A DNA stretch of 64,000 nucleotides from a virus (lineage: Duplodnaviria > Heunggongvirae > Uroviricota > Caudoviricetes), in IMG/VR virus record IMGVR_UViG_2537562172_000006; one strand, 5' to 3'. Below are positions 56,501-62,500 of the stretch, in pieces. Made by a program: the position numbers. Within the stretch, counting starts at the first letter, position 1, and every line of letters begins with the position of its first letter.

Positions 56501-59500
56501 CTCGGCATCCTTGGATCGGTGAACTTATACACGCCTCTACCCAGTCTTTTTATTGTCGCTCCAAAATCCTTTTTAATTAAGCGTCCTGTATAGTTACTCA
56601 TACTTTGGTTGTTATATCTCTCTCCAGTATCTTGATATATCTGGTTTATCCATTCTTTAACGCCAAACTCCTCATTTTTAAACTTTGACGCTGAATATAG
56701 AATTTTTTTGTACACATCTGTTTTAGATGAACGAACAGCATCCTCATACTCTCTTCTTAGCCTACCTTCAGCATTCTCAACTGATTTTTCAATTGATTTA
56801 TGGAAGATTTCAGAATTAATAACTTTGCTAGAATCAACAATGGCAGCCTCAGCAGCCTCCTTGCAAAGGAGGTGAGTAAAATATGGAAAGCCATTGCTTA
56901 TATCAACTATTTGATTTTTAATTTCATCGTCAAACCTTAGTCCTAATCCTTTTTCTCCCAGACTGATTATTTCTAACAGATGCTTTTCATCAACCCCTCC
57001 CAGACAAACCTCATGCAGGCATCTGTTAACAGATTCATGCCCTGCCGTAAGGCTTTTACCATCCTTAGAAATTCCCACAAGCAATACTTTCAATTTCGAA
57101 TTAAAATCGCTCAACTGCTTTATAAACTCTGCAACAGCTTTCTTTATATCGTCTTCTAATACATCAAACTCATCTATAACGAGAACCCCCTGAATTATTC
57201 CAATAGTCGCTGCTGCCTTTCGAGGAGTTATTTCATCTCGTTCTATAGTTATTTTTTCTTCATAACCCACGTTACCAGTAAAGAAACTAAAAAACTTTGC
57301 AGATAAGCCTGCCTTTATTACTTTCTCTTCCTTATACTTTTCCGGGTTTTGTGAGATAAATATTGCACATTCAGAGACGATATCTTTAAATTTAGTGTTA
57401 GTATCACACTTCACATTAAAATACTCACCTAAAAGTACGTTGTATTGCCTGCCACCAATAACTGTAGCATTAGCTAATGAGCTCTTTCCGATTCCTCTAT
57501 CACCATATATCATACAATGCCTACCAGGAACCGTTAAATTATCTAAAATACTTCTCACCTCAGTATCTCTCCCCTTTAAATACTCAGGATTAGATATAGG
57601 AGTTGAAGGAGTATAATATTTATTCACATCATCTTTTTTTGCAAATTCTTGTGCATACTCTGCAAAAATATTCACATACACCTCCTTTTCATTAAAAATG
57701 ATTAACCTGCCACTTTCTGTTTTGCAACCGTTACAAACTTCTTACGAGACTAAATATTTACGCATATCAAAGGAATGTTACGCGCGCTCATATCCATCCC
57801 ACGCTATCCCATTTTACATGAACATAGGTAAAAACCCGCAACATCAGCATCAACAAAAAGCCTTACCCGTAGGCTTAATGTTTGGCTTGGCTGTAGCCTT
57901 ACCGAACGCGCCGCTCACCGTCGTGGCCTGTCCGGTTTCTTCCACTGATACGGCCTCACATCATCATGCTGGTGGCGTTCCTGTTGCAGAACAACGGAAA
58001 CAGGCGCTGAACACCTGTTAATTTTGCCTGCTGGTGGTCTGATTCCGGCAATGCTGCGGATCATCTCCAGCATATCGGCTTCGGTGATGGTCATGATTTA
58101 CACCTTAGGAAATCTTAGGGGGCTGGTTGACACTTTCCGGCTTAAGACCTTAATAAATCTTAATATCGCGGGTTGACACACTTGACACTTTTCGGGAAAA
58201 ACCTTAACAAAACTTAACCTCCCCTGGCATTTCTAAGCATGGCAACTTGACACTTTTCGCGATTTTTTCGGCTTTTTGACGTGGTAAATCTGGCGCAAAG
58301 CCAGTAACGGCGGGGTTTACAGCGAGGTTGACACTTTTTCGCGTTCAGAGTGTAAAGTGTCAACCCGGCAGACGGCCTGACTTGACACTTTTCGCGAATT
58401 TTACGGTCATTAATGGGATGATTTTTCCCACTCAGCCAGGGCGTTTAGTCCGGCTTCACTCCAGTTATCCAGCTCATCGGGACAATCACCTGCAACATAG
58501 CAGAGCTCACAACGCAGCATACGAATTGCCAGCCTGGCATTTTCCCGAAAATCATACTGCTCAAAGTAATATTGCCCAGCATAATCCTCAAGGCAGATAG
58601 CACCATCATCAAGAAATTGCACTTCACAGCATAATTCCCCGGCTGCATCCTGCACACGCTGCTGTATGTCATCGTCCGTTACTGGTGCAGGGATTTTACC
58701 GTCTCTGGCCTTAACTGCTTTCCAGAACTCGCCCCACGTCATTTCCAGCGTTCTTTCTGGCCACATTTCAGAAACGGTGTCTTTCCCCTGTGCTGGTGGG
58801 CTGTTCCGCTGCTCTGTCGCCTCCACATCAATTTTTTTGCCAGACATGATCACTTCGCCTTTCTCGATCCAGTCGTAAACTGTCTGGCGGCTTACGCCTT
58901 TGTGTTTAGCATATTCTGCTTTACTCATTAGCATATTGCCCTCTCATGAAATAACGTTGTGTGCTGTCTGCCCCTGTGACTTCAGCTTGTTTTCAGCATA
59001 TGCCTCGAACACCGTCACCCACGCATCACCATCGGCAGTAAGATACGCTCCGATGTGGCGAACGGACTTAACCAGAAATTTTCCGGTGAACGTGGTCGAG
59101 TTTTTGGAGATAACACTGGGCGCTGTAGTATTAGTCATGAGGATCGACGATGCTCCTGAAAACATTCCCTGAGGCAGTTCGATCACATCACTACACCGTA
59201 TATCTCCCCGCAACGGGCATTTAAAACTGACGGTAAAAGGCTTTATCCATGTTGGTTGGCCTATTAATTCATAAGGTTCAATTTTCTTTATTTTCCCCAG
59301 TTCCAGTGATGAATTATCATAAAGACGAATGCGATCTGGTAACATAATAATGCCTACCCCGCTATATCCTTTCTGACGAATAATCGCTTTCGATAAACTT
59401 CGCACAGCCATAGCCAGCGAACCTATATCAAGGTAAACCAGTGGAATATCTTCAGGTAAAACCAGGTTATCACTGACCGAGGATTCAATAATTTTATCTG

Positions 59501-62500
59501 GATACGCCTGTTTCAAAACACGCGATAACACGTCTCCTAATTTTTCTCCCTGAAATCCAGTACCGCTAAATCTCACAGGAGAACCATCTTCTTTTTTTCT
59601 ATAAACGGGGTTAACAACCAGATTCAACGTCTGGTTGGTGCCAATCCAGTTAGCATAAGCCATATAGACTTCACCATAGATAATCTCTCCCTGTTGATCT
59701 GGATTAGCCAAAGGAAGTCCAGAAGCAAAGCCAGCAGTTAAGCTAACAATGCATCCGTTGAGATTTACACTTTGCTGTAACATCTCAATAGGTAAGCCAT
59801 AAATTGTCAGCATCGTTCCGGAACCAACAACATCCAGGCCGGTTACTTCAAAGTCAAATTCAACATGCAACCCACATCCTGGTGTTTCACTGGTATCAAA
59901 AGGCCCAATGGGGTTCCCATTGCTATCCACTGGCGGCTTACCAGTTTTAGGGTTAATAATTTCCAGTCGGTAATAACGCATTAGTAAACCTCGAACTGAT
60001 TAGTACTTTCACGAAAAATGAGCTTTCCCGGAGCAAATGGAAGTGCCAGATTGATGTCGTAACCATCAGGGGAAGCAATCAGAGGCGTGTATACAATGAC
60101 CTCACCAGAACTGTTTTTCAGTTCCAGATAATAGCGATTCGCATACAGATTGAACGGAACACGGGCAAATAAAATTTCCCCTCCCATCCTGAATTTAAAT
60201 TTGAAAGGTTTTTCCCCATCAGGTTTGAATGGTATAAAAGTATTCATACTCCAGACTCCTGCACAATTTGATTCTTGATACCTGACAATGATTGCCACTA
60301 AATTATTTAGTGGCATGATTCACTCACTCTGTTTTTTCCAGTTGAGCCAGCCGCCCGGATATTTCTTCCAGTTTTTCCAGGGCTGGCTTGCAGGCCGCAT
60401 CAATAACTTCACGGACCATTCCGGCGAGCTGTTCTTCTTCTGTCGGCGTTGTTACTTCCACACCTGATGGTTTCCCGCCCTTATCCCATACGCCCAACGG
60501 TACGAGCGCAACGTGATCGATAAGAAATGGCGTACCCTCAATGAAAAAATTGTCCTCGCCCATTACATCAGGAACTTCTGCCCCACCGGACGCACCACAA
60601 AACACAACCGACGGGCTGGTGGATACCTCCCCCCGTGCTTTCTGGATGTAATCGATGATTTCCTGCCCGTAAATCCGGCATACGCCCCACACCTCGTCAC
60701 CGCGAATATACGGCAACATAACGGTGCCAATAATGCGCGACCGTTCGCCCACGTCTTCAAGGGTTTTGCTTTCGGGATGGTCGATAATGACGGGTACTCC
60801 GGCGCAACGTTCCAGGAACTGCGGATTGAGATAAGTTTGCGGTGAACGCCAGACAAATTCTTTTTCTTCGGCGCGGTAGGCCATTCCGGTTCCTGTGATA
60901 CGCAGGTTAACCAGCCACATGTTGGAAAACTGATAAGGCGACGGTAGCTGTCCGTCCCGAATCTGCTTCGCCGCCTCAATTTCTGTTAAAAGCATAATGT
61001 TATCCGGTTATAAGCAATAAGCCCCGCCAAATCCGGCAGGGCTGAAATCAGCACGTTTTTCATGCCCCCGAGAGGCTTGCAGTGTTAATTTTTACCAGGC
61101 GACGGGGAGGAATTTTGAAAGCACTAAGCCAGTTATTCGGATCCCCCTGATATTCAGTAATCCGGCGTCCGGCTTCATCCATTCTTACGGTTTTACGCAA
61201 ATAGCCCGGCGTATTTTCCACGGCCCACTGAACACTGTCTTTTGCAGCCTGGTAAATCTGATCTTCCAGCACCGCCAGCGTTGCAGAATCTGAAACGGAA
61301 CGAATATCCACATCACTGAATTTTTTAGCCAGCTTCTGTGCACCAATTAATGCACGCTTGCGGTAATCCATCGACTTTTCACCAGCAAACGGGGCTGGAG
61401 CGCGACGGCCCATACAACTGTATGCTGAATCCGCTTTGGCCTGGGCTTCTGCCAGTGAGGATTCATCTTCGACTGACGCGACGATGTTTTGATTCGCGTT
61501 GTCCTCATCTGCTTTTGTGAAATCCTGTGCGGGGATCGCATTCAGAATTTCGATAATCTCCTGCGGAGTGCTGCCCTGCGACTCTGACAGAGCGTTAACC
61601 ACCTCCATCAGTTTTAATCGCAAATCTTCTTTGCTTGCTGGCATTGTTACCACCTCTCTTTTTTCACCAAAAAATCACGACCATCAGGCCGGACGTTCTA
61701 CGGGATAAAGCGCCCGCTGCATTAAACGCCGGGCGACCTCATGAATGCTCGGAGCAATCCCCAGCGGAGAATTGCGGCGTTCCTCGTCCTGGATGCGCTG
61801 TAATGCTTCAATCTGATCACGAGCGAGTAAAACGGGTTTCACGCTGGCTTTTCTCATAGTCATATCTCCTGAACAAAACAATGATTATGATTGCACAAAC
61901 TGAAATGACGATCTACATCATTGCAATTTATGAAACAATAACGCATGATGATCGCGTTCTTCCCATTGACTTCAATCACCTGAAAAACAAAGCCCGCAAC
62001 ACTTCTGGCTGCGGGCTTTTTACTGGCACAAAAAAGCCGGGAAAAATCCCGGCCTCCGTCACTGACTGCAATTTTTCGATCCAGGGTATTTCCTGAATGC
62101 CTTACCATTGGGCTGATGTAATCCCATCCCGGCATGTGCCCGGCTGATGGTTTCGCGCATCTCCCCGAAATTATCCTGCCTTGCTGGTGGGCGTGCTGCC
62201 TTGCGGATACATTCCGCGCGACGTTTTGCCGCCTGTTCCCGTGCCTTGTCATCATTCGCCAGCATGATGACCTCAGCCCACCGCGCCGCCGCTCTCCGGT
62301 ACAGACCACGCGCTTCCAGTGCTTCCGCTTTGCTGTCGTGAATCATGCGCCTGTTTTCTCCTTTGCTACCCGGCGCTGACGTTTGCGCTTCTCATTCAGC
62401 GCCACCAGCCGCGTTTCTGCGTCCTGTTGTTCCTGTGGTGTCACCTCGCCGCACGGCTGGCCTTTCAGGTCGTAGCGTACCCCACCAGCCATTAAGGCGC

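Follow-up and report, generated by a model that had tools for sequence, protein, structure and literature searches.

Split scaffold and protease genes and a tail-hub cassette in a probable phage satellite of Escherichia coli

Why does a short element beside a prophage carry its own versions of that prophage's head and baseplate genes? The question is raised by a 64,000-nucleotide stretch of DNA, here called the window, from the caudoviricete virus record IMGVR_UViG_2537562172_000006 of IMG/VR. A prophage fills the window to about 49.7 kb, and a second element begins at 55857 and continues past 64000. An earlier sequence-only reading had left the choice between a heavily rearranged prophage remnant and a satellite-like element whose scaffold and hub proteins could redirect helper assembly. 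We consider it rather probable that the element belongs to the EcCI type of enterobacterial phage-inducible chromosomal islands (PICIs), is about 13.5 kb long and has as its helper family the Rac-SA53-like temperate myoviruses. The size is an estimate, obtained by adding the cassette and cargo described below to the spacing of the direct repeat in a related island.

The window is identical to E. coli contig AFEA01000010.1 (GCA_000225225.2) across 14 kb. The prophage, about 50 kb in length, lies at the Rac site (ttcA/intR), and a 24-kb query from it aligns with Escherichia phage Rac-SA53 at 95% identity over 70% of the query. Its structural module is that of a contractile-tailed phage, comprising the portal, a head-morphogenesis protein, a DUF2213 fusion, a 205-residue protein, capsid, sheath, tube, tape measure and hub. 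The Pfam names of its proteins, together with fold matches, suggest that this module is distantly related to that of the Pseudomonas Pbunaviruses E217 and Pa193. After the prophage the chromosomal order is ttcA-dbpA-zntB-dgcM-smrA, and the island starts at 55857; these five genes, in only about 6 kb (49.7-55.9 kb), are all that separates the two elements. The adjacent Rac-SA53-like prophage is the likely helper. The genes of the two elements that enter the comparison are the following.

11123-12396, minus strand: helper hub (335 residues) and plug/spacer adaptor (88 residues), assigned by blastp and PHROG
13065-15873, minus strand: helper tape measure (705 residues) and a 209-residue gene in the chaperone position; PHROG tape-measure families phrog_2276 and phrog_7694
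21639-22931, minus strand: helper protease-scaffold fusion, 430 residues, DUF2213 / Pa193_gp24 family by Pfam and PHROG
58944-59981, minus strand: putative satellite baseplate hub paralogue, 345 residues; PHROG baseplate hub phrog_196, E 8e-37
59981-60247, minus strand: putative satellite paralogue of the 88-residue baseplate "plug/spacer" adaptor, assigned from a structure model
60324-60995, minus strand: protease-like domain protein, 223 residues, DUF2213 / Pa193_gp24 family; Pfam PF09979, E 2e-6; PHROG phrog_6216 and phrog_530
61060-61644, minus strand: scaffold-like protein, 194 residues, matching the C-terminal part of phrog_6216

The four paralogue pairs proposed earlier are recovered by blastp, and the head and baseplate paralogues do adjoin directly. 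The hub matches 11123-12130 (minus strand) without gaps at 73% identity over 331 residues (522 bits), and its 88-residue partner matches 12130-12396 (minus strand) at 78% across 87 residues (E 2e-49). The protease-like protein corresponds to residues 3-228 of the helper fusion (54%, E 2e-84) and the scaffold-like protein to residues 280-423 (59%, E 3e-57); the longest reading frame of the latter gene reaches 61653, and 61644 is its likely start. The single prophage gene is thus represented by two, with the scaffold half ahead of the protease half, as had been claimed. The E/K/A-rich linker of the fusion, approximately residues 229-279, is missing from both. The description of the hub pair as near-identical to that of the prophage does not hold, as the four pairs are 54-78% identical and their synonymous divergence is saturated (dS, synonymous substitutions per site, >1.4). 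Nor is the similarity restricted to short low-complexity stretches, since the alignments cover entire proteins or domains. The DNA of the paralogues is 65-72% identical, with 72% over 1,329 bp for the hub cassette. Comparison of 55.6-64 kb with the rest of the window by tblastx detected no paralogy besides these four genes; regulatory or packaging DNA common to island and helper was sought there as well, and no such similarity was found.

Is the element an autonomous island? Its own maintenance functions bear on this.

55857-55882, no strand assigned: att core AATTAACTACACCATTAACTACACCG, 26 bp, at the smrA-side junction; the sole match in the window, 0 being expected by chance
62892-63219, no strand assigned: putative replication origin of seven iterons AACTGTCTACC, directly 3' of the primase gene
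63258-64000, minus strand: C-terminal part of a D5/DUF5906-type primase-helicase, the gene extending past the window end

The 26-bp core recurs in a relative, L004, as a direct repeat 11,443 bp apart that brackets an island between smrA and abgR. The iteron has nine matches in the window where 0.58 are expected, seven of them clustered at 62892-63219, and L004 carries the same iterons. The sequence past 64000 can be followed in record L054, which is 100% identical to the window over 14 kb. There the primase-helicase is complete at 601 residues, and genes for DUF4222, AntA, AlpA and an integrase lie upstream of it. The gene order, all on one strand, is therefore integrase, AlpA, AntA, DUF4222, primase, ProQ/FinO, PerC, a 57-residue open reading frame (ORF), scaffold-like, protease-like, the bracketed pair of 88-residue adaptor and hub, a 174-residue helix-turn-helix (HTH) protein, a 59-residue ORF and variable cargo. 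Annotated relatives have the order of L054.

These features agree with those of a PICI. The integrase, AlpA and replication module point in a single direction in L054 and its relatives, the repeat origin stands immediately 3' of the replication gene, a position described as a hallmark of Gram-negative PICIs (PMC6092414), and the 26-bp core with the estimated length fits an element of about 12-15 kb with specific att sites. Some E. coli PICIs also have PerC homologues and carry cargo at the element ends (PMC6092414). The PICI definition of Fillol-Salom 2018 includes absence of structural genes (PMC6092414), and here the element departs from it by having baseplate hub, adaptor, scaffold-like and protease-like genes. 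That part of the definition was already loose, in that EcCICFT073 encodes capsid and decoration homologues (c1499 and c1500) of unknown role (PMC6092414).

Could the element instead be a rearranged, decaying prophage remnant without an autonomous life cycle? Its head and tail fragments are out of phage order, and genes for lysis, capsid, portal, large terminase, sheath and tube are all missing from it, as they might be from a remnant. We regard this explanation as very improbable. The integrase, att site, primase and iteron origin are the element's own, and the same architecture with intact ORFs is conserved in loci of E. coli, Citrobacter, Pantoea and Enterobacter. Related islands of 11-14 kb occur in at least four chromosomal contexts, namely between smrA and abgR, beside tRNA-Thr, beside ETT2 and beside an AIDA autotransporter gene, with up to four copies in a genome (genomes such as ETEC1747 have up to four of the morphogenesis module). 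ETT2 is a degenerate type III secretion gene cluster. The ratio of nonsynonymous to synonymous substitution (dN/dS) shows that the structural paralogues of the island are under purifying selection across genera, at 0.04-0.23 over the scaffold, protease, hub, adaptor and tape-measure genes. Of the two earlier alternatives it is thus the satellite that stands, and the interpretation is well supported by comparative genomics, including the co-occurrence with helper-type prophages described next.

If the element is a satellite, on which phage does it depend? Among 5,426 complete E. coli genomes, 34 contain the scaffold/protease module and 87 the fusion gene of the helper. At least 22 of the 34 genomes have both, which gives a Fisher odds ratio of about 150 and p of about 1e-32; the genomes are not independent of each other, and the count of 22 among the 34 is a minimum. 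Pantoea stewartii likewise harbors an island of the lineage together with a helper-type prophage (L010, L014). The genomes of helper type measure 46-50 kb and the islands 11.4-13.5 kb. Most likely the island parasitises the neighboring prophage, and its head-scaffold/protease and tail-hub copies probably serve to build parts for its own spread.

What has become of the helper's fused gene in the island? Scaffold first and protease second is the order in every island examined, covering E. coli, Citrobacter, Pantoea, Enterobacter, a Logan contig and 18 IMG/VR loci, and every complete helper-type copy examined is one fused gene of 424-448 residues. Across loci of Escherichia, Citrobacter, Pantoea and Enterobacter, this split, reordered arrangement forms the conserved core of the PICI lineage. 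All 47 sequences compared, 26 from satellites and 21 from helpers, have the STSP and DH motifs unchanged, and dN/dS among islands is 0.04-0.09 for the protease-like and 0.09-0.23 for the scaffold-like gene. The detached protease domain is probably active, judging from these motifs. PHROG matches of the protease-like protein to head maturation proteases (phrog_530) are weak, at E 5.5e-5 and weaker.

In Pa193, a helix-turn-helix formed by residues 286-326 of gp24 binds the inner face of the capsid at its five-fold vertices (PMC11042391), and the 430-residue helper protein is of the same family, Pa193 gp24/DUF2213. The satellite keeps the presumed capsid-binding C-terminal domain of the helper scaffold on a far shorter protein. 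The pair may act as an alternative internal scaffold with its own maturation protease, possibly yielding small capsids. The split could have originated by tandem duplication and reciprocal deletion; a search of the scaffold-like protein's N-terminus for another copy of the helix that follows the protease domain gave a weak match in the E. coli pair (shuffle p about 0.04) and none in the Pantoea pair. Fused protease-scaffold genes are known also from P2 (gpO) and Mu (gpI/Z). Unlike these fused phage genes, the satellite has two genes in reverse order with the charged linker deleted, an arrangement that no phage in the sample has.

Homologues of the scaffold-like protein of about 190 residues are present in Escherichia, Salmonella, Citrobacter, Pantoea and Enterobacter records. 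In NCBI and UniRef the protein mostly goes under the name "NUDIX hydrolase". The protein has no Pfam match at all and nothing supports that label, which appears to be a propagated mis-annotation.

What are the two baseplate paralogues? Sequence searches yielded no solved relative for the helper fusion protein or the hub, so folds were compared. The AlphaFold2 model of the hub (pLDDT 84, pTM 0.81) matches the hub chains of PhiTE, Bas63, E217 and Pa193 in Foldseek with E 1.6e-14 to 1.5e-11, and Mu gp44 and the pyocin R2 hub likewise match. The model of the 88-residue protein matches Pam3 gp18 and Pa193 gp34. On these models the 345-residue protein is predicted to be a baseplate hub of the gp27 / Mu gp44 / Pa193 gp42 fold, and the 88-residue protein a hub-binding plug/spacer adaptor. 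In Pa193, gp34 binds the hub gp42 directly, and the tape measure contacts the hub and the tip with its C-terminus (PMC11042391). Given these contacts, the tail genes of the islands, adaptor with hub and chaperone-position gene with tape measure, look like interacting pairs of the tail center.

The satellite hub is distinguished by a unique C-terminal stretch of 13 residues, predicted to be disordered. Its divergence from the hub of the co-resident helper is concentrated at residues 121-240, where identity is 53%; the flanking 30-residue windows are mostly 77-97% identical, with one at 67%.

How did these genes enter the island? The boundaries of the insertion are exact.

58935-60321, no strand assigned: tail-core cassette, 1,387 bp; the hubless relatives L001, L002 and L004 align to 58934 and resume at 60322
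58410-58934, minus strand: 174-residue protein, HTH at its N-terminus; candidate for a factor of packaging specificity, small-terminase-like or Rpp-like

The cassette is inserted exactly between the stop of the protease-like gene and the start of the 174-residue HTH gene, and ribosome-binding sites and operon structure are kept across the insertion. Its upstream edge holds about 50 nt of the 3' end of a phage gene of 222 residues, which precedes the 88-residue gene in phages. In L022 the same slot is occupied by a chaperone-position gene and a tape measure, with flanks aligning out to window positions 60314 and 58934. This tape-measure cassette is 2.7 kb, contains a full-length tape measure and is 85-92% identical in DNA to the helper region, for which 13065-15873 is the counterpart in the window. 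The tape-measure form of the slot was found in 14 complete genomes and 4 IMG/VR loci, and the hub form in 3 of the 5,426 complete E. coli genomes. For loci of the lineage, a genome-collection scan gave only 5, its peptide patterns being strict, and the IMG/VR scan yielded more. The Pantoea, Enterobacter and L006 islands have tape measure and hub upstream of the scaffold-like gene, and the Citrobacter islands have the tape measure alone there. A change of tail length was considered as the role of the satellite tape measures and rejected, since their lengths (632-680 residues) are like those of the helpers (599-705 residues).

Neutral hitch-hiking would make the hub pair a by-product, without a role, of recent recombination between island and prophage. 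The rarity of the hub cassette, the single allele (one 90% cluster) to which most copies belong and the remnant of the neighboring phage gene at the junction speak for it. The history of the hub speaks the other way and makes this explanation, in our judgment, quite improbable. The nearest phage hub among 5.8 billion proteins is only 80% identical, in a helper-type prophage of Cronobacter, and therefore the capture was neither recent nor from this prophage. A second allele, 90% identical, is carried by the diverged island L030, and the identical allele is found in three different island backbones. A neighbor-joining tree places the hub of the E. coli island within the phage hubs and those of the Pantoea and Enterobacter islands in a clade of their own; these two placements indicate at least two independent captures, one of them in another island clade. 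The satellite hub has a dN/dS of 0.05-0.09 against phage hubs, and the preserved operon structure and ribosome-binding sites also argue against a passive insert.

The 174-residue gene is conserved in E. coli, Pantoea and Enterobacter islands, and other islands have Sf6-type genes for the small terminase subunit (TerS) where it stands. Residues 3-28 match Pfam HTH_17 at 20.6 bits, below the curated cut-off of 27 bits, and residues 1-42 weakly match the PHROG terminase small subunit phrog_57. Homology to Rpp was considered for it and rejected, as neither the sequence nor a profile of seven sequences matched an entry of the Protein Data Bank (PDB), the solved RppC included.

What would the island do with these proteins? 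Induction of the helper would activate the island, which would be excised and replicated. The short scaffold-like protein would compete with or replace the 430-residue helper protease-scaffold as internal scaffold, and the separate protease-like protein, with its conserved candidate catalytic motifs, would mature the satellite-scaffolded shells. They may be of small size: with a T=7 helper of about 48 kb, T=3 geometry would give room for about 13.5 kb, a figure that is arithmetic, (3/7)^1.5 × 48 kb, and not evidence. The HTH/TerS-like protein would point the helper terminase at island DNA. Finally, the satellite hub and adaptor would take the place of the helper pair at the center of the baseplate and give rise to chimeric tails. 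Two speculative benefits of such tails are escape from a block on the helper tail core and bypass of injection exclusion in helper lysogens. Capsid remodelling, redirected packaging and chimeric tails are what we infer. We propose, tentatively and with somewhat less than even confidence, that this PICI lineage has a dedicated, swappable tail-core slot loaded with self-compatible pairs taken from helper-type phages, either hub and adaptor or tape measure and chaperone, that re-engineer the injection apparatus at the center of the stolen tails, and that the split protease/scaffold pair sets capsid size.

The main rival is interference only, in which the scaffold, protease, hub and adaptor are poison or decoy subunits directed against head and tail assembly of the helper or of related competing phages, protecting the host population, and have no place in satellite particles. 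PICIs and prophages do block tail assembly of other phages, as with Tai (PMC11364771), Tab (PMC10884400) and Rta of the Vibrio cholerae satellite PLE11 (PMC11838301). None of the three is homologous to the structural protein that it targets. The divergence in the central domain of the hub could disrupt contacts with partners, and the tail cassettes are optional, both as a decoy would allow. Against this, the cassettes are full-length and strongly constrained (dN/dS about 0.05-0.15), and they were captured as interacting pairs, as would be needed for the parts of a working sub-complex to be compatible. The scaffold/protease module is core to the lineage, which is expected of dependency rather than of a weapon alone. 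We judge interference only to be unlikely; interference may be partly true as well, since it and piracy can both hold.

Several observations weigh against the proposed remodelling of heads and tails. At least two, and up to 12, of the 34 island genomes show no helper-type prophage at the sensitivity of megablast. The tail cassette is dispensable for the lineage, because about half of the related islands have none. A chimeric tail would not be reserved for satellite heads, because myovirus heads and tails assemble separately. The 174-residue protein has no detected sequence similarity to Rpp or to the helper TerS. The Pa193 homologue, gp24, is described only as a putative scaffold (PMC11042391), and protease activity of DUF2213 proteins is suggested only by weak PHROG matches and the conserved motifs. 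The helper prophage of the window also has a peculiarity in its capsid gene. At the capsid stop at 19986 (minus strand, ORF 19458-21014) it has TAT where relatives have TAA, and the 342-codon capsid gene consequently runs through a 57-nt intergenic hairpin into a 156-residue gene, forming an ORF of 518 residues. This is either a draft-assembly error or a fused capsid protein in a helper that may be defective, and with the stop lost the window's own prophage may be incompetent as a helper.

The remaining genes and signals of the island are as follows.

56476-57681, minus strand: cargo at the distal end, a 401-residue STAND/AAA ATPase, candidate anti-phage defence gene; Pfam nSTAND1 and, faintly, AAA_22 in L054
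57915-58094, minus strand: conserved 59-residue ORF, present in most related islands
61020-61043, minus strand: G+C-rich hairpin between the scaffold-like and protease-like genes, from a scan for terminator-like structures
61684-61857, minus strand: 57-residue ORF, always before the morphogenesis genes, in all related islands including those of Pantoea and Citrobacter
61989-62019, minus strand: strong terminator-like hairpin after perC, a 12-bp stem followed by a T run
62059-62346, minus strand: PerC-family regulator, by PGAP annotation of relatives and Pfam PerC in L054
62343-62885, minus strand: ProQ/FinO-family protein, by PGAP annotation of relatives and Pfam ProQ in L054

The ATPase has a weak PADLOC match to PDC-S59 (E 3.5e-7). 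The cargo position is variable, and relatives have SieB, DUF4747 or an orc1/cdc6-like gene there. The strong hairpin after perC suggests that the morphogenesis genes form a transcription unit of their own. The hairpin at 61043-61020 could bias the ratio of scaffold-like to protease-like protein. Rfam gave no non-coding RNA family at the gathering score, and promoter-like matches were no more frequent than chance.

To which known satellites does the island compare? It resembles PICIs of the EcCICFT073 / EcCIO42 type in its 11-14 kb, integrase followed by AlpA, one-direction transcription, primase replicon with iterons 3' of it, ProQ-family and PerC genes, distal accessory or defence cargo and homologues of helper head proteins (PMC6092414). 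It differs from them in several respects. In place of lambda or phi80, the likely helper family consists of Rac-SA53-like myoviruses whose structural module is Pbunavirus-like. A split protease/scaffold pair stands for the head genes where EcCICFT073 has homologues of capsid and decoration proteins, and no similarity of the candidate packaging protein to RppA-C could be detected. Tail genes are present as well, although the PICI definition has them absent and SatelliteFinder forbids them. In the PICI model of SatelliteFinder (de Sousa 2023), tail and holin profiles are forbidden components, with 80 tail profiles.

Like capsid-forming PICIs (cf-PICIs), the island combines a PICI backbone with phage-derived structural genes. 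Whereas cf-PICIs make heads for themselves and steal tails entire, this lineage seems to modify some components of each; no major capsid, portal, head-tail adaptor/connector or large terminase gene was found among the window or L054 ORFs. P4-like satellites are marked by a Psu-Delta-Sid operon and an alpha primase. In the present element the ORFs from primase to cargo all belong to other families, and the annotations of relatives contain no Sid or Psu, no dedicated profile having been run.

The only experimental precedent for the tail genes is PLE11, a PICI-like element (PLE) of V. cholerae whose own tape measure and hub, BhuB, replace those of ICP1 in chimeric tails and are incorporated into virions; its tail-core set is TMP, TAC and BhuB, and hub presence varies among PLEs (PMC11838301). 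That study also notes predicted tmp genes elsewhere, both in putative satellites from other Vibrio species and, outside Vibrionaceae, in unrelated satellites, with cf-PICIs among those analysed (PMC11838301). A 2025 preprint dealing with satellites of mycobacteria states that tape measures are otherwise absent from satellites. The window has homologues of the helper hub and adaptor, and sister islands have a tape measure joined either by the chaperone-position gene or by a hub. Like PLE11, the island encodes a diverged hub, sister islands have a tape measure and a chaperone-position gene, and hub presence is variable. Unlike PLE11, it is a PICI and not a PLE, and its helper is temperate whereas ICP1 is lytic. 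Identity to the helper proteins is 73-78% here and 19-41% there. Alternative cassettes use a single slot, the hub-binding adaptor is co-carried, and no Rta-like inhibitor was identified.

The head genes bring to mind the capsid modifiers of other satellites. SaPI1 CpmB was the source of the idea of an alternative internal scaffold that keeps the capsid-binding end of the helper scaffold. Like CpmB, SaPIbov5 Ccm, P4 Sid and PLE TcaP, the island protein could engage the helper capsid protein and alter assembly. Unlike these, the scaffold-like protein is a clear homologue (59%) of the helper scaffold domain and is accompanied by a detached protease. Within the incomplete coverage of our literature search, no PICI was described as having a gene for a hub or hub adaptor, and there was no account of this split scaffold/protease module and nothing relevant on DUF2213 in satellites or on Rac-SA53.

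Other observations concern the arrangement of one island and the helper phage family. In locus L035 (IMGVR_UViG_2639763008_000002, 6214-20561), an island of this lineage lies immediately beside a capsid gene of helper type, which is short at the N-terminal end (321 residues) and is followed by helper tail genes. Its own genes are a tape-measure-like gene, hub, 57-residue ORF, scaffold-like, protease-like and two TerS genes. The locus looks like a satellite integrated inside the head-gene region of a helper.

PGAP names a homologue of the 478-residue helper product of 23690-25126 "anti-CBASS protein Acb1 family"; its place in the module and its PHROG match (phrog_146, E 1e-73) make this product the portal protein. 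The region at about 30746-31964 is 99% identical to L005 31731-32949, where a subtilase-family AB5 toxin binding subunit and a scabin-related ADP-ribosyltransferase are annotated. In the helper prophage of L005 these toxin-annotated genes are directly upstream of the holin and endopeptidase genes. The tape measures of the helper phage family are mosaic (window 13065-15182 compared with L012, L014, L015 and L017). A C-terminal enzymatic domain of the type PGNLNF...IINHENG is found in the window helper and the satellite tape measures, and the Pantoea, Erwinia and Cronobacter helper tape measures have a classical SLT-like domain in its place.

The Gram-negative PICI backbone is of a known kind, and tail genes in PICIs were not expected. 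Satellites have been thought to tamper with heads and packaging, and remodelling of tails has so far been demonstrated only for Vibrio PLE11. If the proposal is true, tail remodelling is a general satellite strategy and not a peculiarity of Vibrio PLEs, and it would have escaped notice systematically, since tail genes disqualify an element in the eyes of satellite finders. PICIs with tail genes may be under-counted, or misread as prophage remnants, since detection models forbid such genes. An E. coli lineage with alternative tail-core cassettes would make the purpose of chimeric tails directly testable in a tractable host, and the split, reordered protease/scaffold pair offers a natural experiment on how scaffold domains set capsid geometry. 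The islands carry defence cargo and virulence regulators (PerC and the ProQ-family protein) in pig, cattle and Shiga toxin-producing or enterotoxigenic E. coli (STEC/ETEC) strains, which makes their route of transfer of practical relevance.

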